A stretch of DNA of 53,415 nucleotides, taken from contig JALHSU010000261.1 of NCBI GenBank assembly GCA_022865345.1, positions 1 to 53,415 on the forward strand, written 5' to 3'. Below the pieces are notes generated by a model. That model did not search any database. It saw only the letters and a program-made list of their open reading frames with translations, and was not told the DNA's origin. Every line of letters begins with the position of its first letter. Position 1 is the first letter of the stretch. Positions 1,401-47,591 of this stretch are shown piece by piece. The stretch comes from Candidatus Zixiibacteriota bacterium (GTDB lineage: Bacteria; Zixibacteria; MSB-5A5; RBG-16-43-9). Position numbers and translations under genes: made by a program.

Positions 1401-1514
1401 TTTTGTCTCCTTGAATTTTAGATTTTTTGTCAAGCAGTAGCCCCACCTTGCCCTCAAGGCGGGATATTCACCCACTTTGAGGCAACGTGGGTCCACCGGT
1501 TAGGAAAGATCATG

Positions 1515-1622
1515 GTAGGCGCAAGCTTCAGCTTGCGAAGTGTAGGGGCTGGGTTGCCCAGCCCAAAATCACTGGGCGAGGGGACCTCGCCCCTACAGGT
1601 CAGACAGGGATGTCTGGCCTAC
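1515..1622. repeat. array of four GTAG-family hairpins
   Basis: GTAGGCGCAAGCTTCAGCTTGCG (1515-1537), GTAGGGGCTGGGTTGCCCAGCCC (1542-1564), GGGCGAGGGGACCTCGCCCCTAC (1574-1596), GGTCAGACAGGGATGTCTGGCCTAC (1598-1622). Confidence 0.8.
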
Positions 1623-3866: not shown

Positions 3867-4427
3867 TCACTCTTGAAGAATTTGGCTAATTACAGTTGAT
3901 AAAGTAAATATATACTCTGATAGGTCAAGAACAGTAGTAACAAAGTCATATTTTAATAAAGGTCTTTTAGATTCATTGAATCTATTTGAAATTACATTCT
4001 TCTTTTGTCCCGTATGGAATAGAAGTTCATTCAACCAATAGTGGAGGTTTTCTTCAGGATTAAATTCCTTATCAATAAAGGTCTGACCTATATAGGATTC
4101 TTCTAAGGCTGTTTTAAAAGATGCTCGTATCTCAGCTATTTGCTTTTTCAGTTCGTCACTTTCTAACTTTGTATGAAGAAGATTACATATAGAATAAAAA
4201 TGATTTGGCTCATCCTGTAGCAAAAAAGTTCGAAAATCGATTAACATTGAGCGGAAATCGTCTTCATCAGGGAAAATTGTTTTATATCCAATCTTTTTAC
4301 CAATGTAAACCTCTAGAAAATGTTTTGGATATCCATCTTTGAATAATCTTCTATTTTTTAATTCCTGAGCGCGGTACAAAAATACCTTTAGTTTTTGTTT
4401 CTCTTCTTCTATCAATTTCGCAGACAT
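3867..4427 (-). CDS. hypothetical protein (low-GC ORFan, 186 aa)
   Basis: Clean ORF that is visibly more AT-rich than its neighbours. I recognise no motif. Predicted helical and charged. Confidence 0.6.
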   Translation of the reverse strand: MSAKLIEEEKQKLKVFLYRAQELKNRRLFKDGYPKHFLEVYIGKKIGYKTIFPDEDDFRSMLIDFRTFLLQDEPNHFYSICNLLHTKLESDELKKQIAEIRASFKTALEESYIGQTFIDKEFNPEENLHYWLNELLFHTGQKKNVISNRFNESKRPLLKYDFVTTVLDLSEYIFTLSTVISQILQE

Positions 4428-4553
4428 GGTTTTCGGTTACGCTACTTTGAGTTTAATTGTTCATTTCTTAGTCCTCATCCTATTGTTCTTTTTGTCCTTA
4501 TTTTATTCATTATCTTCCAAAAGTCAAGTCATCTTTTATTTTCAAAAAAATAC

Positions 4554-4740
4554 ATAGAGACGCATTCTATGCGTCTCTACAAATGTAGGAGCAATTCATG
4601 TCCATTTGGATCCATCTGGAAATTGCCCCTACAAGAAAAAACTGGAGGTCTGAAGACCTCCGCTACAAAAAACCTGTAGGGGCGTATTGTGTAATACGCC
4701 CCTACGCAAAAAGACAAGGGCGGGGAAACCCCGCCCCTAC
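4554..4740. repeat. array of five GTAG/CTAC-clamped hairpins
   Basis: Modules at 4554-4580, 4585-4632, 4644-4666, 4676-4705 and 4718-4740 (sequences are given in the findings). Confidence 0.85.
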
Positions 4741-4746
4741 AGGAAA

Positions 4747-5229
4747 CTACATTCTTTTCTTGCCGATCAATTCCTTTATGTCCAATCTCAATATCCCTAC
4801 GTCTTGGTAGCTTTGTTCGCTTTTGATAGATTTTTCCTTTACCTTGCCCGGATTTTTTTCCAAATGGTTTATCAACACATCTATTCCATGCTTCTTTTCT
4901 CCCAGATTCTCCACAATAAACATCTCTCCCCAGAACACCACTGAACGATATTTCTGTTCGCATTCATCCGTTACATAGCCCAGGTCTTCTATTATAGTTC
5001 CGCACACCTGAGGATTTTCATTAATAAAATCAATCTTCAATCCCTTTTTTGCGCAATGGAAATAAAGAGCATTTTTGTCCTTGTCATAACCGTAATTCAA
5101 GGCAACGATGTAAGGTTCATTTTTCCGGCACATGGAAATCGTTGCATACTTCCCTCGTTTCAGAATTTCCATCAATTCATTTGAATCGGTTATCTCCCGG
5201 TCCTTTTTTTTCATATGGTATCTTGCCAT
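4747..5229 (-). CDS. pyridoxamine 5'-phosphate oxidase-like FMN-binding protein
   Basis: 160 aa. AGGAGG SD. The pattern ...ATISMCRKNEPYIVALNYGYD...LYFHCAKKGLKID... is typical of the Pyridox_ox_2-type split-barrel family. Confidence 0.75.
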   Translation of the reverse strand: MARYHMKKKDREITDSNELMEILKRGKYATISMCRKNEPYIVALNYGYDKDKNALYFHCAKKGLKIDFINENPQVCGTIIEDLGYVTDECEQKYRSVVFWGEMFIVENLGEKKHGIDVLINHLEKNPGKVKEKSIKSEQSYQDVGILRLDIKELIGKKRM

Positions 5230-5294: not shown

Positions 5295-5389
5295 GTAGGG
5301 GCGAGGTTTCCTCGCCCTCCACCCTCGGGTTGGTAGCCGCAGACTTTAGTCTGCGCTTTTATGATTCGCAACCTGAAGGTTGCGGCTAC
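5295..5389. repeat. array of three GTAG-family hairpins
   Basis: GTAGGGGCGAGGTTTCCTCGCCC (5295-5317), GTAGCCGCAGACTTTAGTCTGCG (5333-5355), CGCAACCTGAAGGTTGCGGCTAC (5367-5389). Confidence 0.8.
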
Positions 5390-6694: not shown

Positions 6695-7036
6695 GTAGGG
6701 GCGATCCGTCGAAGGCGGACTCGCTCTTGGTCTGCCAATATTCTAAAAATCGCTATCTGAAGACCTCCGCTACAAATGTGACAAAGGTCACCCTCAAACT
6801 CGTTTGAGGGTGCCACCCCATTAAGACAAAGTAATAGTAAAGGGTGCCATCCCCAATCAAGATTGGGGATGTTCTTATTTAAAAAAGCTGTGCGAACCGC
6901 AGGGGCGAGGTTCTCTCGACCTCATTGTTTGTTGACAGTAGCCTGAGTTGTCTTCGACATAGGTCTGTTATAGGGGCGTATTGCTCTTCGACTTCGCTCA
7001 GAGCAGTGAGCCGGTCGAACTGCAATACGCCCCTAC
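6695..7036. repeat. long hairpin array including a nested element
   Basis: GTAGGGGCGATCCGTCGAAGGCGGAC... (6695-), CTGAAGACCTCCGCTAC half-unit (6757-6773), CACCCTCAAACTCGTTTGAGGGTG (6789-6811), ATCCCCAATCAAGATTGGGGAT (6849-6870), GGGGCGAGGTTCTCTCGACC (6901-), split GTATTGC/TGCAATAC element (6970-7036). Confidence 0.8.
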
Positions 7037-10135: not shown

Positions 10136-10292
10136 CTCCGTTGGTGTCTTCACCAACGGAGCCTTGTTGGTCAGGAGACCAACAAGGAGCAAGAATGATA
10201 ACTGTCATTCTGAGCCCGTAGGGCGAAGAATCTGTTTTCAAGTAAAATTCAATTGATTCTTCAGTCGTCCATTTGGACCTCTTCAGAATGAC
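10136..10292. repeat. three hairpin modules inside the fabH-fabD spacer
   Basis: CTCCGTTGGTG-TCTT-CACCAACGGAG (10136-10161), CCTTGTTGGTC-AGGA-GACCAACAAGG (10162-10187), GTCATTCTGAG...CAGAATGAC element (10204-10292). Confidence 0.85.
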
Positions 10293-15635: not shown

Positions 15636-15783
15636 GTAGGGGCGGGGTTTCTCCGCCCCGAATTACGGATGCTGGGACAGGGGTTGTACCCCTGTCCCCT
15701 CTTTTTTACGGGCAGGAGTCCAACTCCTGCCCGAGCAACGAATAGTGTCATTGCGAGGAGGTCATTTGACCGACGAAGCAATC
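15636..15783. repeat. hairpin array downstream of the acyl-CoA dehydrogenase gene
   Basis: GTAGGGGCGGGGTTTCTCCGCCCC (15636-15659), terminator hairpin, GGGCAGGAGT-CCA-ACTCCTGCCC (15710-15732), GTCATTGCGAGGAGGTCATTTGACCGACGAAGCAATC (15747-15783). Confidence 0.85.
15674..15708 (+). terminator. Rho-independent terminator after the acyl-CoA dehydrogenase gene
   Basis: GGGACAGGGG-TTGTA-CCCCTGTCCC followed by CTCTTTTTT. Confidence 0.8.
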
Positions 15784-15876
15784 CTCTGTCAGAGATTGTG
15801 AGGGTCAGCACCAACACCTGCGTGATTCTTGTTTTAGATCTCCCCTATAATTTCGCCTTTTTTTCAAATTAAACAT

Positions 15877-16850: not shown

Positions 16851-16878
16851 GTAGGGGCGTATTGCAATACGCCCCTAC
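16851..16878. repeat. perfect 28-nt palindrome GTAGGGGCGTATTGCAATACGCCCCTAC
   Basis: Read directly. It serves as the reference copy for the GTATTGCAATAC core class. Confidence 0.95.
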
Positions 16879-17887: not shown

Positions 17888-17952
17888 CTCTGTTGGTGAG
17901 GACACCAACAGAGAGCATTTGCCTGCTGGTGGCTGGTCTCCTGACCAGCCAC
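17888..17952. repeat. two hairpins of the TTGGTG/CACCAA and GGTC/GACC class
   Basis: CTCTGTTGGTG-AGGA-CACCAACAGAG (17888-17913), GTGGCTGGTC-TCCT-GACCAGCCAC (17929-17952). Compare 10136-10187 and 34836-34851. Confidence 0.8.
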
Positions 17953-20045: not shown

Positions 20046-20115
20046 GTAGCGGAAACCTTCAGGTTTCCATCTTTTTTGAATAGAGAAAAGATGGAAGGCT
20101 GAAGCCTTCCGCTAC
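20046..20115. repeat. composite element: GTAGCGG/CCGCTAC clamp enclosing three hairpins
   Basis: GTAGCGG-AAACCTTCAGGTTT-CCATCTTTT..AAAAGATGG-AAGGCTGAAGCCTT-CCGCTAC. Confidence 0.85.
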
Positions 20116-20154: not shown

Positions 20155-20988
20155 TTACTCTGGTTTTCTTCCTTTGATTACATAAAAGAAACTTGGTCCG
20201 CAAGCAGTATATTTACTTTCCTCAATTTGCTGTTGAAGAATGGGTTTGAGTCTTTCGGATATTTCCCGGAAACGCTCATACTCTTCCGGGTTACCGCCTC
20301 CTGCTAAGAATTCTTCTCCTGTCCTTTCCATCCAGAATTCGTGCTCATCTAACTGAGTTTTCTTAATCATTTTTAAAAGCTGCTGTTGCTTCGGATCTTC
20401 ATAGGGCGGGATCAGGAAATGGACTTTATCGTTCATCCGAGTGTCAATCCCGATAAGTCCCAGCTTTTTCATCATTGCAGGAACCTTAGAACCTATGCTA
20501 TTGTCACCCCGGCCCAGCTTAATGTGGCCCTTGTGGCAGATCAAATGGACTTTCTTGATTAATAGCTCCTCCTCGATGTCAAGTTCCGGCATTGACCAAT
20601 AGGGTTTTATCAGCATTACCGACAGGTTATCCGGCTCGTTGCACATGATCAGTCCTCCGGGTTCAGCTACCCGTATCATTTCAGCCAGAGCAAGCTCAGG
20701 TTTTTCCAGGTGCATTAGAAGAGTCTGGCACATAACCCAGTCCGCGAAGTTGTCTGAAAACGGTAATTTATAGGCATCGCCTACCATAAATTTTGCCTCC
20801 CCACCAACTGCCCATTCCTTAGCCGCATCTGCCGCTTCCCTGACCAATTCCTCAGAGACATCTACACCTAAATAACGTCCGCCTTTACCGAAATAGGTCC
20901 AGTAGGTGTAACCTAAATTACCCAGACCACATCCGACATCCACTGCGGTCATTCCGGGTCTTAGTTCCAGCCAGAGCTGTAGGGGCAC
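20155..20988 (-). CDS. class I SAM-dependent methyltransferase (N-terminus unusually short and uncertain)
   Basis: Motif I VDVGCGLGNLG begins at residue 16. The GTG start in the track lies inside a 28-nt palindrome (20979-21006). Alternative ATG at 20952-20950. Confidence 0.7.
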   Translation of the reverse strand: MPLQLWLELRPGMTAVDVGCGLGNLGYTYWTYFGKGGRYLGVDVSEELVREAADAAKEWAVGGEAKFMVGDAYKLPFSDNFADWVMCQTLLMHLEKPELALAEMIRVAEPGGLIMCNEPDNLSVMLIKPYWSMPELDIEEELLIKKVHLICHKGHIKLGRGDNSIGSKVPAMMKKLGLIGIDTRMNDKVHFLIPPYEDPKQQQLLKMIKKTQLDEHEFWMERTGEEFLAGGGNPEEYERFREISERLKPILQQQIEESKYTACGPSFFYVIKGRKPE

Positions 20989-21006
20989 GGCACGCCGTGC
21001 CCCTAC
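20979..21006. repeat. 28-nt palindrome GTAGGGGCACGGCACGCCGTGCCCCTAC
   Basis: Read directly. It sits in the 27-nt gap between two minus-strand genes and contains the track start codon of the methyltransferase. Confidence 0.95.
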
Positions 21007-22475: not shown

Positions 22476-22648
22476 GTCATTGCGAGGAGGTCATTTGACC
22501 GACGAAGCAATCCGTCAGGTCACACGACACTCGACAGGGCTGGCACCCTCAAACTCGTTTGAGGGTGATACCGGAGTATTTTTCAATGAGTAGACCCATC
22601 TTGCCCTCAAGATGGGTTTCCATTCCCGCCTTGCGGGCAAGGCGGGAA
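22476..22648. repeat. four-module hairpin cassette
   Basis: 37-mer identical to 15747-15783 (22476-22512), CACCCTCAAACTCGTTTGAGGGTG (22544-22567), GTAGACCCATCTTGCCCTCAAGATGGGT (22590-22617), perfect 26-nt palindrome TTCCCGCCTTGCGGGCAAGGCGGGAA (22623-22648). Confidence 0.9.
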
Positions 22649-22690
22649 TACCAGATTTGCTTTTTTTCTTCTGAATGAGGACTTTTTAAA

Positions 22691-24778: not shown

Positions 24779-24938
24779 TCATTGCGAGGTATGGACCTAA
24801 GTGGTGCATACCGAGAATGTCATTTGACCGACGAAGCAATCCACTGAAAGTGAGTAGGTTCTGTTCAAACTGACTTTAGTCAGGTTTGTTTTTCCCTCTC
24901 CTTTTTAAGGAGAGGGTCAGGGTGAGGTCTCCTCATCA
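24778..24938. repeat. hairpin cassette downstream of the GNAT gene
   Basis: GTCATTGCGAGG half-unit with a 29-nt insertion (24778-24841), CTGACTTTAGTCAG (24870-24883), CCCTCTCCTTTTTAAGGAGAGGG (24894-24916), GGTGAGGTCTCCTCATC. Confidence 0.85.
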
Positions 24939-25782: not shown

Positions 25783-25861
25783 GTCATTCTGGGCACGCAG
25801 GGCGAAGAATCCCTACAGATTCTTCGGTCGTCTCGCCTCCGGCGGACTCCCTCAGAATGAC
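25783..25861. repeat. GTCATTCTG-type inverted-repeat element (79 nt)
   Basis: GTCATTCTGGGCACGCAGGGCGAAGAATC-CCTACA-GATTCTTCGGTCGTCTCGCCTCCGGCGGACTCCCTCAGAATGAC. Confidence 0.9.
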
Positions 25862-25922
25862 TCGAGGAAATAGAACCTGCTGATAACGTCGGTAATGAAT
25901 AAAGATTCCAAAGGAGGTTTTC

Positions 25923-28810: not shown

Positions 28811-29132
28811 TGGCGGATGTTATCATCCACCAAGGAGGTCAGAGAGGATGATAACATCCTCGCTGATTGAGCAGACAAATGTCATTCTGAGCCCGCAGGG
28901 CGAAGAATCTGTAGATTCTTCGGTCGTCCATTTGGACTCCCTCAGAATGACAACAGTCGGGTGACACCCTCAAACTTGTTTGAGGGTGATGCAGATGTGT
29001 CGTTCTGAGCCCGAAGAGGCGAAGAATCTATAGTCAACCTGTACACCCAGGTTGCCCTCAACCTGGGTTCATATTCCCACCTTGCGGGCAAGGTGGGAAT
29101 ACCACTGACGTTCGAACTGACTTCAGTCAGGT
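28811..29132. repeat. array of seven hairpin modules between DUF2892 and EamA genes
   Basis: GGATGTTATCATCC...GGATGATAACATCC (28811-28866), GTCATTCTGAG element (28881-28951), CACCCTCAAACTTGTTTGAGGGTG (28965-28988), GTCGTTCTGAG half-unit (28999-29028), ACCCAGGTTGCCCTCAACCTGGGT (29044-29067), TTCCCACCTTGCGGGCAAGGTGGGAA (29074-29099), AACTGACTTCAGTCAGGT (29115-29132). Confidence 0.9.
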
Positions 29133-30157: not shown

Positions 30158-30242
30158 CACCCTCAAACTTGTTTGAGGGTGATGCAGGAGATTTATACAA
30201 ATGCCTTTGATTTATATTCCCGCCCTGTGGCAAAGGTGGGAA
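30158..30242. repeat. hairpin cassette upstream of cysK
   Basis: CACCCTCAAACTTGTTTGAGGGTG (30158-30181) and the degenerate TTCCCGCCCTGTGGCAAAGGTGGGAA (30217-30242). Confidence 0.85.
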
Positions 30243-30278
30243 TACCGATTGACAACCAAGAAAACGGAAAGGTAAAAT

Positions 30279-31214: not shown

Positions 31215-31545
31215 AACTGACTTTAGTCAGGTCTCTCCTTCTCCTTTTTAAGGAGAGGGATTAAGGGTGAGGTTATTGTCCTGACTGACTAAGCTCCTGG
31301 TGGATGTTATCATCCATCAGAAAAGAGTCAGCGAGGATGATAACATCCTCGCTGAGCAAGGTTCCCCTCTCCTTACAGGAGAGGGTTAGGATGAGGTCAC
31401 CGTTCTAATTTCGGCAAACCCATCTTGCCCTAAAGATGGATTTATAAGACCCCGCCTTGAGGGCAAGGCGGGGCTACGTGGGTTATTCTGATTTAGACGG
31501 TAAACCCACAGCCTGCCCGTAGGGCTACCCTCAACCTGGGTAGCG
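31215..31545. repeat. largest hairpin array in the window (nine or more modules)
   Basis: AACTGACTTTAGTCAGGT, CCTTCTCCTTTTTAAGGAGAGGG, GGTGGATGTTATCATCCATCA...GAGGATGATAACATCCTC (31298-31354), CCCTCTCCTTACAGGAGAGGG, ACCCATCTTGCCCTAAAGATGGAT, CCCCGCCTTGAGGGCAAGGCGGGG, GTGGGTT...AACCCAC, CTACCCTCAACCTGGGTAG. Confidence 0.85.
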
Positions 31546-31591: not shown

Positions 31592-32287
31592 ATGACTAAC
31601 TTAGAAAATATAATCGACCGCCAGATAAAAAGATGGGAATTAGAGAAAAAGAAGAGAGAGGAAGAGCAAAAAGCTCAGGTTAAAGAGATTTTCCCGGGAC
31701 CTGTGATAACCGTATCCAGAGAAAGGGGGAGTCGAGGGAGTTATCTGGCAAGGATTTTGGCTGAGAAACTCAACTATCAGCTTGTTCACCGGGAGATAAT
31801 AGATTATATGGTCAAGGATACCGGAGTAAGACGCAGGTTGATAGAATCCTTGGATGAAAAGGTTAAATCTGAAATAGAGCTGTGGGTGGAGGGACTTTTG
31901 AAAGGAAAATATTTAGGCAAAAGCGATTACCTTTATCATTTAATGAAATCGATTTTAGCTATAGCCCAGCATGGCGAAACTGTAATTATCGGTAGAGGCG
32001 CAAATTTCGTCCTGGGCTTGGAAAAAGGTTTTCATATCAGGATTGTCGCTCCAATTGAAAAAAGAATCGAAAACCTGATTGTCTACAAGCATTTCAATGC
32101 AGCCCAAGCCAAAAAGGAAATCGAGCGTGGAGATAAAGAGCGAAAAGAATTTATTCATACCTTTTTTGGGAAAAATATTGATGACCCTTCTTCTTATGAC
32201 CTCATCTTAAACACAGCTAATTTCCAGATCGAAGAAGCTTTGGACTTGATATTAAAAGCTTTTGATTCAAAATTCAAAAAAACGTAG
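31592..32287 (+). CDS. cytidylate kinase-like family protein
   Basis: 231 aa. VITVSRERGSRGSYLARILAEKL P-loop-like block typical of the Cytidylate_kin2 family. Confidence 0.7.
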   Translation: MTNLENIIDRQIKRWELEKKKREEEQKAQVKEIFPGPVITVSRERGSRGSYLARILAEKLNYQLVHREIIDYMVKDTGVRRRLIESLDEKVKSEIELWVEGLLKGKYLGKSDYLYHLMKSILAIAQHGETVIIGRGANFVLGLEKGFHIRIVAPIEKRIENLIVYKHFNAAQAKKEIERGDKERKEFIHTFFGKNIDDPSSYDLILNTANFQIEEALDLILKAFDSKFKKT

Positions 32288-34780: not shown

Positions 34781-34785
34781 CCATG

Positions 34786-34822
34786 TAGGAGCGGGGTTTC
34801 CCCGCCCCTTAGGTTTTTTTTA
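34786..34822 (+). terminator. Rho-independent terminator after lpxA (also a member of the GTAG hairpin family)
   Basis: GTAGGAGCGGGG-TTTC-CCCGCCCCTTAGG followed by TTTTTTTT. Confidence 0.75.
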
Positions 34823-34835
34823 TATCTGCTTTCGG

Positions 34836-34891
34836 TTGGTCTCCAGACCAATTGAGGGCTTTGGTAGGGGCAATTCATGAATTGCCCCTAC
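34836..34891. repeat. TTGGTCTCCAGACCAA hairpin plus perfect 28-nt palindrome GTAGGGGCAATTCATGAATTGCCCCTAC
   Basis: 34836-34851 and 34864-34891, read directly. Confidence 0.9.
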
Positions 34892-37400: not shown

Positions 37401-37713
37401 GTAGGGGCACGGCGTGCCGTCCCCCTACAAAATTCGTAGACCCATCTTGCCCTCAAGATGGGTCTTGTTTTTTTGTAGCGGAAGGCCGTCAAGTTCTTGT
37501 CCACAGGATCCTGGCGAAGACTTCAGCCTTCCATTTCTTTATTGTAGTTGCCCAATTTATTGGGCAAAGCTCGATAAATCGAGCAACTACAATTTCGTAG
37601 ATGGTAGACTCACGCTGCCCTCAACATTGGTCTGGTCATAAGTTCTTGAGAAATGAAAGGTGGATCAGGCATTCTTGCCTGACTAAAGGAACAGGCAGGA
37701 TGCCTGTTCCACC
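37401..37713. repeat. hairpin array of about 310 nt downstream of the heme-barrel gene
   Basis: GTAGGGGCACGGCGTGCCGTCCCCCTAC (37401-37428), GTAGACCCATCTTG... (37436-37464), GTAGCGGAAGGC...GCCTTCC with a loop insertion (37475-37532), GTAGTTGC[CCCAATTTATTGGG][CTCGATAAATCGAG]GCAACTAC (37544-37590), degenerate GTAGATGGTAGAC... (37597-37635), GGTGGA[TCAGGCATTCTTGCCTGA]..[GGAACAGGCAGGATGCCTGTTCC]ACC (37659-37713). Confidence 0.85.
37436..37475 (+). terminator. Rho-independent terminator after the heme-barrel gene (GTAGACCCATCTTG family hairpin)
   Basis: GACCCATCTTG-CCCT-CAAGATGGGTC followed by TTGTTTTTTT. Confidence 0.75.
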
Positions 37714-42054: not shown

Positions 42055-43114
42055 ACTTTTCCATTACTGGGAGAAAGAAGATAAGAGGAGCATCATCTCC
42101 TTTTTCTTGCGATTCCTTTCGCTTCTATACCTTACAGGATACCTAATCCGGAAATCTCTTTACGGCCTGGGGTTAATAAAGCCAAAAAAGTTAAGCGCAA
42201 AGGTCATAAGTGTCGGTAACATCACTGTTGGAGGCTCTGGAAAAACACCTTTTGTCCTCTACCTAGCAAAAAAGCTTCAAGAGAAAGGAATAATTTTTAC
42301 CATCTTAACCAGAGGATACAAAAGGTTATCAAAAGAAACTTTGGAACTAAAAAAAAGTGACTCTTTGCATATGAAATGGGAACAGGCTGGTGACGAACCT
42401 TATCTTTTAAGCAACCATCTGCCTGGAGTCCCGATAATTGTTGACAAGGACAGATTTCATTCTGGAACAATAGCTCAGGATAAATATAAAGCTGATTTTT
42501 TGCTCTTGGATGATGGTTTCCAACACTGGAGATTGAAACGAGATCTGGATATCGTGATGATCGATTCCTCAATTGATCTGAAAAAAGAAAAACTGTTGCC
42601 CGCTGGCAGGCTCAGAGAGCCTCTATCCTCTCTCAATAGAGCAAACCTCTTCGTTCTCACCAGAGTCGATCAATCTGAACACAGGGATAAAGTGAAGAAG
42701 TTATTGCAGAAATACAACCCCCAGGCTCCGATTGTAGAAAGTATCCTGCAGACAAGTTCAATCCAGAACTGGAAAGACAAAACTGAAATCAGCCTAATCC
42801 AGTTCAACGGGAAGAAAGGTTTAGCTTTCTGCGGCATCGGAAACCCTTTTTCCTTTGAGAGGACCTTGAAATCTCTGGGTCTGGAGATTTTGAATGCTTT
42901 TTTCTTTTTAGACCATTATATTTACACCCGAAAAGACCTTTTATTACTGCAAGAGGAAGCAAGAAAATCAGGAGCTGAATACCTTATCACTACTGAAAAA
43001 GATTCGATAAGGCTTCCGGATACAGGCGAATTGACTATCCCTCTGCTGGTGGTAAAAGTAGAATTAAAAATAATCTCCGGAGAAGAAAAGCTCTGGGAGG
43101 TATTGAATATTTAA
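42041..43114 (+). CDS. lpxK: tetraacyldisaccharide 4'-kinase
   Basis: 357 aa. VGNITVGGSGKTP P-loop and the DDGFQH motif. 14-nt overlap with waaA. Confidence 0.92.
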   Translation: MKKNRLFHYWEKEDKRSIISFFLRFLSLLYLTGYLIRKSLYGLGLIKPKKLSAKVISVGNITVGGSGKTPFVLYLAKKLQEKGIIFTILTRGYKRLSKETLELKKSDSLHMKWEQAGDEPYLLSNHLPGVPIIVDKDRFHSGTIAQDKYKADFLLLDDGFQHWRLKRDLDIVMIDSSIDLKKEKLLPAGRLREPLSSLNRANLFVLTRVDQSEHRDKVKKLLQKYNPQAPIVESILQTSSIQNWKDKTEISLIQFNGKKGLAFCGIGNPFSFERTLKSLGLEILNAFFFLDHYIYTRKDLLLLQEEARKSGAEYLITTEKDSIRLPDTGELTIPLLVVKVELKIISGEEKLWEVLNI

Positions 43115-43117
43115 AAG

Positions 43118-43146
43118 TTGACATGCGGGGAAGTTTGTAATAAAAT
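43118..43146 (+). promoter_or_regulatory. sigma70-like promoter of the low-GC two-gene islet
   Basis: TTGACA (43118-43123), 17 nt spacer, TAAAAT (43141-43146), directly after the lpxK stop. Confidence 0.6.
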
Positions 43147-43191
43147 AAGGTCAAAGATAAAAGGAAAAATAATTCAATAGGAACTTTTAAG

Positions 43192-43923
43192 ATGCAGCAT
43201 AAAGAGGACTTGACGTATTCAGAAGCGATTGAGCAAGTAATGTTACATAATGGATATTTTGCACCATTAAAATTGCTTTACAAAGAAATCTGGAAGTATA
43301 AAGACCAATCAAAAATTGTTGGAAAGACACCGCATATGACAATACAAGAAAGAGTTCAGAGAGATGCAAGATTTACAAGAATTGGACTTGGAGTATATGC
43401 ACTTGCCAAATTTCTTGATAAATTACCAAAAATAACTTTACCAAAAACCGAATCCGAGAAGAAAGAACGACTACATGCAAGAATTCAAGGAATGCTTATT
43501 GAAATTGGTAATAACAGAAATGAAGTCGAAAACACTTATACAAATGATAAGAAATGGATTTTTGATAATAAGACTTTGGGAAGTTTAGCAACCCTTGCAG
43601 AAGTCCCGCCTTTTACTTTCGAAAACATTATAAATGAAACTGTTCGTTTCTTTGACGTAATTTGGTTCAATCGTAGAAATTTTCCAATTCAGATTTTTGA
43701 AATAGAACGTTCTACTAATTTTAGAGATGCCCTTGTAAAGTTTATGGAGTTACAAGATTTCAGAACTACATTCTGTTGTATTTCAAATGAAGATAAAAAA
43801 CAAAAGTTTCAAAGGGAATTAAGTAAAACTGCTTTTGAGGCATTAAGAAATATATGTAAATTCTTTTCTTATGACCAAGTTGAAAGTGATTATAAAATAG
43901 CATTGAGTGAAACATATTTGTGA
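43192..43923 (+). CDS. hypothetical protein: N-terminal HARE-HTH-like winged helix plus C-terminal PD-(D/E)xK-like nuclease candidate
   Basis: 243 aa, low GC, own promoter. GKTPHMTIQERVQRDARFTRIGLGVYAL resembles the HARE-HTH signature. The C-terminal H..IQGMLIEIG ... FFDVIWF ... IQIFEIERS layout resembles restriction-endonuclease-fold cores (D155, E170, E172 by my numbering). Pattern recognition only; no search was run. Confidence 0.5.
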   Translation: MQHKEDLTYSEAIEQVMLHNGYFAPLKLLYKEIWKYKDQSKIVGKTPHMTIQERVQRDARFTRIGLGVYALAKFLDKLPKITLPKTESEKKERLHARIQGMLIEIGNNRNEVENTYTNDKKWIFDNKTLGSLATLAEVPPFTFENIINETVRFFDVIWFNRRNFPIQIFEIERSTNFRDALVKFMELQDFRTTFCCISNEDKKQKFQRELSKTAFEALRNICKFFSYDQVESDYKIALSETYL

Positions 43924-44192
43924 TGATAATTGATGGCTATGAAATAACTGCTTTTACCAATCTGAGCGAAGAAATTTGCACAAAGATTCTTGACATTGTA
44001 CAAAGAGAATTTGGCGAAATTGGAGATTTCTTAATTCAGGATGATGAAGTCGGTTTTCGAGTCTACAGAGGTTATTTTGAAAACGCACCTAAACTGATTA
44101 CAGCAGAGGAAATAAAATTAAAATTGATTGAAAAATCCGATTACCATTTCGCGCTTGGTTATGAAATTTATATAAGGAATGTAAAGGATTAA
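43923..44192 (+). CDS. hypothetical small protein (about 89 aa) coupled to the upstream gene
   Basis: ATG 43923 overlaps the upstream TGA (TGATG); a GTG at 43920 is also possible. Low GC. No recognisable motif. Confidence 0.5.
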   Translation: MIIDGYEITAFTNLSEEICTKILDIVQREFGEIGDFLIQDDEVGFRVYRGYFENAPKLITAEEIKLKLIEKSDYHFALGYEIYIRNVKD

Positions 44193-44372
44193 GCTGCTTT
44201 TTCTTGCATAAAAAACATTCAAAAGTAATTTCAGCAGTTGAATGGAAAGCCATTGGAAAAAGCCTGGTGTAAATTATCCAAATTCAAAGATATATTGAGT
44301 ATGAGTTGCAAAACGATAATTTGAAGTTCGATGAAATAAAATACTAATAATCTACAAGCCTTTAAGAATCAG

Positions 44373-46004
44373 ATGTTTCACTCCGCACAAACAGACATAG
44401 TAGACTTTTTGATCATCGGCTCAGGCATAGCTGGACTTTCCTATGCTTTGAAGGTCTCAGAGTTAGGAAGCGTTGCCATAATCACCAAGAAAAAGGACTC
44501 AGAATCTAACACCAATTATGCCCAGGGAGGGATTGCTGCGGTTTTATCGCCGGATGATTCTTTTGAGCTTCATATTCAGGACACTCTGAAGGCTGGAGAC
44601 GGGATTTGTAATCCAGAAGTGGTCAAGAAAGTGGTACAAGCAGGTCCTTTGGAAGTGCAGGAGCTCCTTAATATCGGTGTGAATTTCTCCAAAACGAAAG
44701 ACCAGTTTGACCTGGGAAGAGAGGGCGGGCATTCACGCAAGCGGGTGGCTCATGCGGCTGACCTGACCGGAAGAGAGATCGAAACTGCACTTATCCAGTC
44801 TGTAAAGACCAGAAAAAACATAAAAATCTATGAAGACCACATAGCTGTTGACTTAATCACCCAACATCATCTCAAAGATTACCGGAGAAAACCGGGAGAT
44901 AGAATAATATGCTGGGGGGCTTATGTGCTGGATGTGAAAAAAGGGAGAGTGGATAAATTACTGAGCCGGATTACCCTTTTAGCTACAGGAGGTGCCGGCA
45001 GGATCTACCAGCATACCACTAACCCGGATATTGCCACAGGGGATGGCCTTGCTATGGCTTACCGTGCAGGCGCCCGGGTGGCAAATTTAGAATTCATCCA
45101 GTTCCATCCCACTTCTTTATTTCATCCTAAAGGCGACTCTTTTCTCATTTCCGAGACGGTTCGGGGAGAAGGAGGAAAATTGAAATTGAAGTCCGGAAAA
45201 ACCTTTATGGAGAGCTACCATCCTCAAAAAGAGCTTGCTCCCAGGGACGTGGTTGCCAGGGCAATAGATGCGGAGCTTAAGAAAAGCGGAGACTCCTGCG
45301 TATATCTGGACATCACTCATCTGGACAAGGAATTCATCCTGCGAAGATTCCCCAATATCTTTGGCCGCTGCCTGGCTCTGGGGATAGACATTACCAGGGA
45401 CTGGATACCGGTAGTTCCGGCAGCCCATTATATGTGTGGAGGAGTCGTCACCAATCTGGATGCGGAAACTGACATTGACAACCTCTATGCCTGCGGTGAA
45501 GTGGCGATGACCGGAATGCACGGTGCCAACCGGCTGGCATCCAATTCCCTGCTGGAAGCAGTTGCTTTTGCGAATTTTGCCGCTGAAGCCTCAAGAAGGA
45601 AATTTGAATCTGACAGGAGTTTTGATTTTCCCCGGATACCTGAATGGAGCACCAAAGGAGTTTTTGACCAGAAGGAATGGGTGATAATCTCCCATGCCAG
45701 GCAGGAGATACAGTCTTTTATGTGGAATTTGGTGGGTATTGTCAGATCAAACAGCCGTCTGGAGATGGCTAAAGCGAGGATCGACATTCTGCTTGAGGAG
45801 ATAACCGAATTCTATCATAAAAATCCAGTGACCTATGAGGTCATAGAGTTGAGAAACATCTCTCAGGTGGCAGAGCTTGTCATCCGCTCCGCTCTTTTGC
45901 GTAAAGAAAGCAGAGGCTTGCATTATAATCAGGATTACCCGAAAAAGGATGACCAGAACTGGAAAAAGGATACGGTTCTCCTTGAAGTTGAATCTGAGGA
46001 GTAA
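44373..46004 (+). CDS. nadB: L-aspartate oxidase
   Basis: 543 aa. DFLIIGSGIAGLS FAD motif and the HYMCGG and RGLHYN blocks. Confidence 0.93.
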   Translation: MFHSAQTDIVDFLIIGSGIAGLSYALKVSELGSVAIITKKKDSESNTNYAQGGIAAVLSPDDSFELHIQDTLKAGDGICNPEVVKKVVQAGPLEVQELLNIGVNFSKTKDQFDLGREGGHSRKRVAHAADLTGREIETALIQSVKTRKNIKIYEDHIAVDLITQHHLKDYRRKPGDRIICWGAYVLDVKKGRVDKLLSRITLLATGGAGRIYQHTTNPDIATGDGLAMAYRAGARVANLEFIQFHPTSLFHPKGDSFLISETVRGEGGKLKLKSGKTFMESYHPQKELAPRDVVARAIDAELKKSGDSCVYLDITHLDKEFILRRFPNIFGRCLALGIDITRDWIPVVPAAHYMCGGVVTNLDAETDIDNLYACGEVAMTGMHGANRLASNSLLEAVAFANFAAEASRRKFESDRSFDFPRIPEWSTKGVFDQKEWVIISHARQEIQSFMWNLVGIVRSNSRLEMAKARIDILLEEITEFYHKNPVTYEVIELRNISQVAELVIRSALLRKESRGLHYNQDYPKKDDQNWKKDTVLLEVESEE

Positions 46005-47564: not shown

Positions 47565-47591
47565 GTAGAGACGCATCGCATGCGTCTCTAC
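47565..47591. repeat. GTAGAGACGCAT-CGC-ATGCGTCTCTAC palindrome between convergent guaA and kinase genes
   Basis: Read directly. Relatives at 4554-4580 and 32284-. Confidence 0.9.

Follow-up and report, generated by a model that had tools for sequence, protein, structure and literature searches.

The five back-to-back hairpins at positions 4554–4740 of contig JALHSU010000261.1 from a Candidatus Zixiibacteriota bacterium, designated E1–E5, are very probably a cluster of repetitive extragenic palindromes (REPs) resembling a bacterial interspersed mosaic element (BIME). They are assigned to the GTAG superfamily, as REPs of the canonical long and double-foot types that would be handled by a REP-associated tyrosine transposase (TnpA-REP or RAYT) of subclass 2.4, which corresponds to group 4 of Bertels. 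The analysis covered positions 1–53,415 of the contig (the window, 53 kb) and followed an initial annotation made from the sequence. That annotation had pointed to REP-like palindromes of the RAYT type, and a 28-mer and several palindrome cores of the window were indeed located inside HuH/Y1 RAYT genes of other genomes. It had also proposed a non-classical modular superfamily with one clamp and many interchangeable cores. This part has to be given up, since the class had already been described by Quentin et al. (2018; PMC6006769) and Di Nocera et al. (2013; PMC3733652), and the window REPs are thus members of a described kind. The subclass 2.4 REP class is hereby extended to Zixibacteria.

The hairpin array and GTAG-footed repeats of the window

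All five hairpins were recovered at 4554–4740, as annotated, with stems of 7–13 bp, loops of 3–4 nt and unit lengths of 23–30 nt (Table 1). Folding of the minus-strand transcript of a 211-nt stretch gave five separate hairpins with a minimum free energy of −98.5 kcal/mol, compared with −55.2 ± 4.3 kcal/mol for shuffled sequences (z = −10). On the plus strand, the left foot of E1 has decayed to ATAG, so GTAG is read as the foot from the minus strand; positions 47565–47591 hold a perfect sister copy. An intact copy of E2 is found at 34864–34891.

Of the 68 perfect hairpins of the window (stem ≥7, loop 3–8), 24 had a GTAG/CTAC foot, against an expectation of about 6% from noncoding 10-mers, and GTAG was the commonest foot among the 256 tetramers (24 versus 13 for the runner-up). 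When one stem mismatch was allowed, GTAG occurred at 30 sites, with a median of 7 over all tetramers, and only AAAA was higher. The foot is therefore far more frequent at palindromes of the window than base composition predicts. The hand count of about 30 sites in the initial annotation was close to the 33 distinct GTAG-footed hairpins found here; approximately 28 of them lie between genes, although noncoding sequence makes up only 17% of the window. Seven (six by a strict count) are double-foot elements with 5′ GT[AG]G, 3′ C[TC]AC and three G–C pairs at the stem base. The full GTAG-GGGC...GCCC-CTAC clamp is present in five of the seven, and that of E2 departs from it by one G>A change. Clusters were observed at 1437–1622, 4554–4740, 5295–5389 and 37401–37590, and inverted pairs at 1542/1574, 5333/5367, 20046/20093 and 37544/37569. 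Single-foot REPs lie on the sense strand of the neighbouring genes in 17 cases versus 6 (hand count in the window). Most of the core classes listed in the initial annotation held when checked; the copies at 6970, which has a 36-nt loop insert, and at 32284 and 6757, which are half-elements, were not intact.

The closest relatives were identified from the prolyl oligopeptidase of the window, which is 89–90% identical at the amino-acid level to those of two Zixibacteria metagenome-assembled genomes (MAGs; L123 and L124), the nearest in the genome collection; the enzyme of a third MAG, which bears the label Terriglobales and likewise contains the 28-mer, is 82% identical. In the sister species L123, with ∼87–93% identity in the flanking genes, the array spacer contains an exact E3 and degenerate orthologues of E1 and E2 in the same place. 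The L123 orthologue of E2 is uninterrupted and is without the 20-nt loop insert, which is thus specific to the window. At the position of E4 and E5, L123 has a different double-foot REP that is itself split by a nested hairpin, and its spacer between the LUD-domain and PNPOx-like genes (cluster 5295–5389 in the window) contains a wholly different REP set. This comparison indicates that REP content turns over on the scale of species and that hairpin loops serve as insertion sites.

Two side observations concern these relatives and the loops. The MAG labelled Terriglobales (L125/L080, DATKKH01) shares 80–83% nucleotide identity, gene order, E3 and the 28-mer with the window; it is probably mislabelled, or else the bin is mixed. 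Within the window, three mutually unrelated and partly palindromic inserts of 20, 36 and 35 nt were found in REP loops, at 4601–4620, at 6985–7020 and at 37487–37521 (the last in the single-foot REP 37475–37532), and other small elements apparently use the loops of REPs as landing sites.

Occurrence of the palindromes inside RAYT genes

RAYT-profile scans, one of them of metagenomes, supplied 240 RAYT-encoding loci. Each scan contributed 80 listed loci (in one scan the best 80 of 410 relatives), and the counts that follow refer to these sampled loci rather than to whole genomes. An internal double-foot palindrome of 26–30 nt was present in 88 of 150 ORFs (open reading frames) that are intact from HuH to Y (59%), at a median position nine codons past the HuH motif, and two stop-free frames are used about equally (47:43). 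Exactly 28 nt were measured for 75 of 90 internal elements, which follow the design GTAG-GGGC, a 12-nt palindromic core and GCCC-CTAC, with at least 49 different cores. One clamp combined with many cores is therefore what this class of REPs normally looks like, and no new superfamily is called for. The internal REP was identical to a flanking REP in 11 of the 23 loci that have both, whereas permutation predicts 1.8 (maximum 6 in 1000 permutations); the core is thus partly enzyme-specific. Locus L291 encodes two tandem RAYTs, each of which contains, and is preceded by, its own core (GACCGGCCGGTC and AATTCATGAATT, respectively).

Several cores of the window were recovered from such genes. The GTATTGCAATAC core is located inside the RAYT of L203 (Zixibacteria SM23_73_2) and others, and L203 also has a AATTCATGAATT copy just downstream of its RAYT gene. 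The 28-mer with the E2 core, AATTCATGAATT, lies in frame inside the RAYTs of L220, another member of the Zixibacteria, and of L291, and a near-match of the ACGGCACGCCGT core was found inside that of L264 (read as VGARHAVPLQ). The RAYT ORF of L288 contains an identical copy of the E5 23-mer and a GGGCGAGG...CCTCGCCC unit; L288 was considered as a member of the Zixibacteria and rejected, its nearest relatives being Nitrospira. The unit at 5295 is present exactly in a Nitrospira RAYT locus (L368). No double-foot palindrome was detected in 1.23 Mb of control loci from other phyla, while the density per 100 kb was 11–21 in the vicinity of RAYTs and 11 in the window. An exact E3 was found only in the three close Zixibacteria relatives L123–L125 and was absent from approximately 3.4 Mb of other loci.

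The canonical 28-mer of the window, GTAGGGGCGTATTGCAATACGCCCCTAC, has exact matches in at least 120 genome stretches, which represent more than 15 phyla. Its hosts include cyanobacteria, Planctomycetes (anammox bacteria among them), Omnitrophota, Atribacterota, Patescibacteria, Zixibacteria, Sumerlaeota, Chloroflexota, Nitrospirota, Ignavibacteria, Salinibacteraceae, Trueperaceae and other phyla. Among 131 copies, the flanks show no relationship to one another and no conserved target sequence, so that GTAG and CTAC mark the exact limits of the unit. In cyanobacterial loci it is placed within the loops of other hairpins. In 7 of 120 listed loci it lies in frame within an ORF of ∼190 amino acids of the HuH/Y1 type, directly after PNH[VIF]H, where it is translated as RGVLQYAPT or VGAYCNTPL. 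The encoded protein scores 23–26 bits with Pfam Y1_Tnp, just above the cutoff of 23, and shows the motifs NH[IFV]H, WQ and YIxNNP in an alignment. Its sole match in the PDB is the E. coli TnpA-REP structure 4ER8 (E = 1e-4). The 28-mer is identical (28/28) inside eight RAYT genes of different phyla (L203, L204, L206, L209, L213, L236, L255 and L270), in which the most conserved coding block next to it has 59% DNA identity overall and 38% at third positions. Set against this near-saturated coding DNA, the identity means that the palindrome either stays constant as DNA sequence or is renewed again and again from copies in the genome. No paper with the 28-mer or its peptide readings was found in a full-text literature search. 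A clear vector for its spread across phyla was not found either: only 7 of 72,556 plasmid records, each of a large plasmid that is non-mobilizable, have RAYT-like genes, and the 28-mer is present in only five IMG/VR contigs.

In L291 (metagenome contig Ga0315298_1000003, 1600–1760), four tandem REP half-copies stand before one full copy in the RAYT ORF, the arrangement being read as NVGAVQNVGAVQNVGAIQNVGAIQNVGAIHELPLQ, and half-copies together with a full copy were also seen in L064, L071 and L085. Abortive strand transfer or slippage at the hairpin may have left such arrangements as footprints.

Comparison with known systems and weighing of alternatives

For TnpAY1 subclass 2.4, Quentin et al. 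(2018; BMC Genomics 19:475) give the motifs NH[IFV]H, WQ and YIxNNP, conserved residues that contact GTAG (WQ...R) and, uniquely in this subclass, in-frame REP insertions in the tnpA-REP gene between HuH and Y. Their 'canonical long' REPs have three G–C pairs at the foot of the stem, their 'double foot' REPs have 5′ GT[AG]G and 3′ C[TC]AC, and several REP subfamilies can occur per locus. REPs of subclass 2.4, which equals group 4 of Bertels et al. (2017), are like those of the window in their 5′ GTAG with or without 3′ CTAC, in the three G–C pairs at the stem base, and in the occurrence of several subfamilies per genome with a patchy distribution over many phyla. They differ in that Zixibacteria are not among the host phyla named by Quentin et al. 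(2018) and in that a cognate RAYT was not seen here. The GTAG superfamily of Di Nocera et al. (2013; BMC Genomics 14:522) comprises 24 families that reach Cyanobacteria, Chloroflexi and Planctomycetes–Verrucomicrobia–Chlamydiae (PVC) bacteria, with several REP types in one genome and REPs nested in other palindromes. Short GC-rich GTAG-tagged stem-loops are described there that, like the window elements, occur singly, as inverted dimers or in clusters, are sometimes nested, lie mostly between unidirectional or convergent genes and are not confined to Proteobacteria. The emphasis of that paper is on a tag left unpaired at one end, whereas seven window elements have the tag at both ends within a perfect palindrome.

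The REP/BIME and REPtron of E. coli (group 2) and the systems of REPINs (REP doublets forming hairpins) and RAYTs in Pseudomonas and Stenotrophomonas (group 3) share with the window a GTAG-footed hairpin, an intergenic location and alternating clusters. The hairpin of groups 2 and 3 is the substrate of the HuH/Y1 enzyme and has side roles in termination and mRNA stability such as are proposed below for the window. In contrast, the REPs of E. coli are bulged, imperfect palindromes that form one sequence family per RAYT, while those of the window are perfect, have the GGGC clamp and use many cores. Unlike in E. coli, REPs of the window class are found inside the RAYT ORF of other genomes, and the protein is only distantly related to 4ER8. 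The subterminal hairpins of IS200/IS605 elements and of their miniature derivatives, the palindrome-associated transposable elements (PATEs), are similar in that single-stranded hairpins are read by a Y1 HuH transposase and a foot tetranucleotide guides cleavage. Unlike these, the window elements are single hairpin units of 23–30 nt without distinct left and right ends, and the flanks of the 131 copies of the 28-mer contain no target tetranucleotide.

For groups 2 and 3, in vitro work has shown cleavage of single-stranded REP DNA at CT and has described what GTAG, the loop and the stem contribute (PMC8266576). By analogy with these groups, each REP unit in single-stranded DNA, for example at a replication fork, would fold to a hairpin that a HuH/Y1 RAYT binds, with the stem and the loop core providing specificity. 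The GTAG at the foot would position cleavage at a nearby CT, and cutting and rejoining by the enzyme would spread or rearrange the copies. A preference for sites next to or inside other hairpins would give rise to the clusters and nested elements. Each core class would correspond to one cognate RAYT paralogue, typically with that REP in frame in a surface loop after the HuH motif, and the many cores of the window would reflect several RAYTs, present or past, in the lineage.

A further idea, which we put forward tentatively and consider rather doubtful, is that the in-frame REP of most subclass 2.4 RAYT genes might be a built-in master copy. The enzyme would then carry its own substrate, so that gene and repeat travel and evolve together, with the 12-nt core as the address and GTAG-GGGC as the common handle. 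If correct, this would explain the identity of the 28-mer across more than 15 phyla amid near-saturated coding DNA, as well as the dozens of cores with one clamp and the many core classes in one genome. The constant in-gene 28-mer and the lack of an obvious plasmid or viral vector support the idea and are no proof of it.

Several results weigh against the assignment to subclass 2.4 REPs handled by a RAYT. The ∼190-residue protein reaches 68–72 bits with NCBIfam REP_Tyr_transpos, short of the cutoff of 80. Neither a RAYT gene nor a remnant of one was detected in the window, where regular-expression and tblastn searches returned only peptides encoded by REPs, and no RAYT from the closest MAGs (MEWM01, JAUYBY01 and DATKKH01) was among the 80 loci listed per scan. 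A metagenome match from the same JGI sample (L330) was considered as the RAYT of the window organism and rejected, since its GC content of 57% indicates another organism. The link to RAYTs thus rests on homology of the repeats rather than on co-occurrence. For several single-foot classes, E3 and GTAGACCCATCTTG among them, no RAYT carrying them was found in the surveyed loci. Biochemical data on a subclass 2.4 enzyme were not found in the literature consulted, which covers groups 2 and 3 only. Finally, the array shows no presence/absence polymorphism in two strain contigs with 98.7% (L121) and 99.96% (L122) identity. Recent mobility is therefore not demonstrated, and the comparison is evidence neither for nor against it. 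The only sizeable indel between the window and L121 (6705–6719) lies in the spacer beside the half-REP 6757–6773 and a GTAGGGGCG... stub at 6695.

Some of these results would suit a history in which the REPs are relic or domesticated: descended from REPs mobilized by RAYTs, they would have lost the active cognate enzyme, and fixed copies would be kept for termination, protection of mRNA 3′ ends or structuring of the DNA. The array without polymorphism between strains, the retention of E1–E3 in place in the sister species, the decayed feet or clamps of E1 (ATAG), E2 (GGAGC) and the copy at 6970, the half-elements at 6757 and 32284, and a RAYT found neither in the window nor among the top matches from the closest MAGs are all in line with this. 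However, the copies at 16851, 34864, 47565 and 20979 are perfect, and perfection decays quickly unless it is renewed; the same spacers differ in REP content between sister species; and other Zixibacteria (L203 and L220) encode RAYTs with the same cores. The scans, with 80 listed loci each, do not establish that the relatives lack a RAYT. We regard this history as unlikely.

Spread by another route, either by an IS200/IS605 TnpA acting in trans or by copying of hairpins during replication or repair (template switching), with RAYT genes as a favoured landing site, is very improbable. Spread of the template-switching type has reportedly been proposed for very small dispersed repeats in cyanobacteria. 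Tandem half-copies beside full copies (in the ORF of L291, and in L085 and L071), unrelated small palindromes nested in REP loops and the 12 of 23 loci in which internal and flanking cores differ would fit such a route. It leaves unexplained why one position of one protein subfamily is hit in 59% of the genes and why internal and flanking cores match far above chance. Conserved GTAG-contacting residues (WQ...R) are reported for subclass 2.4, direct biochemistry exists for related RAYTs, and neither IS200/IS605 ends nor tnpB are nearby. As the initial annotation had noted, the window has no transposase: no tnpA or tnpB was found in it, any more than a RAYT.

Four of the five array hairpins, including E1 and E3, are followed by a T-run on the minus (transcribed) strand. 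The units lie directly 3′ of a gene and before the promoter-like site of the next gene, and from this arrangement a secondary role as stacked terminators or 3′-end stabilizers is plausible. That the hairpins as a whole are ordinary intrinsic terminators or locally evolved RNA hairpins with an incidental GTAG and no repeat family is scarcely tenable and largely refuted: the position of the array 3′ of a gene, its T-runs and the T-rich tails on about 8–10 of some 28 intergenic copies speak for it, but unrelated phyla and the interior of RAYT ORFs yield identical sequences of 23–28 nt, the feet show a strong enrichment of GTAG, termination needs no five stacked hairpins, and the hairpins have no Rfam match (in an Rfam scan of the window, only a tRNA-Arg reached the gathering score). 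Most copies have no T-run, and there are some in antisense orientation or upstream of genes, so that termination cannot be the identity of these REPs; the initial annotation had likewise not taken them all for U-tract terminators at 3′ ends. A CRISPR array (no regular spacing and no repeated unit), integron attC sites (R′/R′′ core sites lacking) and DNA uptake sequences (the elements are palindromic, clustered and intergenic) were rejected.

Genomic setting, other repeats and significance

The window is chromosomal and contains the housekeeping genes plsX, fabH and fabD as well as the tRNA-Arg; its GC skew tracks gene orientation. The array lies within a 319-nt spacer between two minus-strand genes, and a σ70-like promoter is predicted from the sequence at 4527→4500, between the array and the downstream gene (Table 1). 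Two low-GC stretches (3867–4427 and ∼43100–44400; GC content 32–37% versus 44% for the window) contain genes without family matches. The initial annotation had described them as free of the elements, and no double-foot REP was found in either, which is consistent with recent acquisition. In a minus-strand ORF at 633–1496 (short-chain dehydrogenase) the Pfam match begins only at residue 39, and the listed GTG start is probably too far upstream; with this start over-extended, the REP copy at 1437–1463 would be intergenic.

Table 1. Positions of the array, of further REPs and of the adjacent genes in the window. Lower-case letters are loop bases; strand cells are empty where no strand is assigned.
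Feature	Position	Strand	Description
E1	4554–4580	−	Core GAGACGCAT-nnn-ATGCGTCTC; stem 11, loop 3; double-foot type
E2	4585–4632		Double-foot, core AATTCATGAATT; GTAGGAGCAATTCATG + 20-nt insert + AATTGCCCCTAC; one G>A in clamp (GGAGC)
Insert in E2 loop	4601–4620		20-nt imperfect palindrome TCCATTTGGATCCATCTGGA; seen against the intact copy at 34864 and L123
E3	4644–4666	−	Single-foot GTAGC-GGAGGTC-ttca-GACCTCC (minus strand); stem 7, loop 4; plus strand continues with GCTAC; T-run follows
E4	4676–4705		Perfect 30-nt double-foot palindrome, 13-bp stem; variant of the GTATTGCAATAC 28-mer, loop GTGT
E5	4718–4740	−	Single-foot GTAG-GGGCGGGG-ttt-CCCCGCCC (minus strand); stem 8, loop 3; plus strand continues with CTAC
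Two single-foot REPs	332–358 and 595–617	−	
Cluster of five single-foot REPs	1437–1622		At 1437, 1515, 1542, 1574 and 1597
Second cluster	5295–5389		GTAG-GGGCGAGGtttCCTCGCCC unit and inverted REPIN-like pair GTAGCCGCAGAC..../....GGTTGCGGCTAC
Half-element	6757–6773		
GTATTGCAATAC-core REP, disrupted	6970–7036		Left foot ATAG; 36-nt loop insert at ∼6985–7020
Single-foot REP	15636–15661	+	GTAGGGGCGGGG-tttct-CCGCCCC
Canonical 28-nt double-foot REP	16851–16878		GTAGGGGCGTATTGCAATACGCCCCTAC
Inverted single-foot pair	20046–20115		GTAGCGGAAACC-ttca-GGTTTCC and GTAGCGGAAGGC-ttca-GCCTTCC; convergent genes on either side; T-run after each
Double-foot REP	20979–21006		Core ACGGCACGCCGT
Single-foot REP	22590–22619	+	GTAG-ACCCATCTTG-ccct-CAAGATGGGT
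Two single-foot REPs	31450–31477 and 31519–31544	− and +	
Half-element	32284		
Single-foot REP and intact double-foot REP	34785–34809 and 34864–34891		Double-foot REP has the AATTCATGAATT core
REP cluster	37401–37590		Double-foot 37401–37428; single-foot 37436–37465; single-foot 37475–37532; inverted pair 37544–37590
Perfect double-foot REP	47565–47591		GTAGAGACGCAT-cgc-ATGCGTCTCTAC; between convergent genes
PNPOx-like gene (Pyridox_ox_2)	4747–5229	−	Stop codon directly before the array, which is on its 3′ side
Low-GC gene	3867–4427	−	No family match; downstream of the array

Short palindromic repeats are unusually abundant in this genome, and several other kinds were recorded in the window. 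A palindromic repeat of ∼75 nt resembling a MITE, a miniature transposable element with inverted repeats, is present in three copies (10199–10290, 25787–25870 and 28880–28955) of the form TGTCATTCTGAG...CGAAGAATC-loop-GATTCTTCG...CTCAGAATGACA; it is without a GTAG foot, yet one copy reads GTAGGGCGAAGAATC. The repeat GTCATTGCGAGGAGGTCATTTGACCGACGAAGCAATCC has three intergenic copies, one of them interrupted (15745–15785, 22479–22517 and 24779–24845). A module of up to three hairpins recurs at 22544–22649, 28965–29101, 30158–30250, 31420–31477 and 6789–6812. It is made up of CACCCTCAAA-nnnn-TTTGAGGGTG, followed by either ACCCATCTTG-ccct-CAAGATGGGT or ACCCAGGTTG-ccct-CAACCTGGGT, and lastly ATTCCCRCCTTG-cggg-CAAGGYGGGAAT; from copy to copy the stems differ by compensatory changes, a GTAG foot is sometimes present on the middle hairpin only, and there is no Rfam match. 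Three hairpin families without a GTAG foot, CTCYGTTGGTG...CACCAACRGAG, CCCTCTCCTT-ttt-AAGGAGAGGG and (TCAGC)GAGGATG-ataa-CATCCTC(GCTGA), have sites, listed in groups, at 10136–10187 and 17888–17913; at 24894–24916, 31233–31257 and 31365–31385; and at 28844–28861 and 31328–31355.

The survey adds points that were not found in the literature texts: the uniform 28-nt format, the set of at least 49 cores with partial pairing of one core to one RAYT, and the one 28-mer that is invariant across phyla. Drawn from sampled loci, these could help in tests of how Y1 enzymes read hairpin sequence, and a built-in master copy, if real, would make this a naturally re-addressable system for recognition of single-stranded DNA. 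For the window itself the result is mainly one of annotation, in that its intergenic GC-rich hairpins are REPs and neither unknown regulators nor a new superfamily. These REPs mark the genome as one that has, or has had, RAYTs of subclass 2.4.

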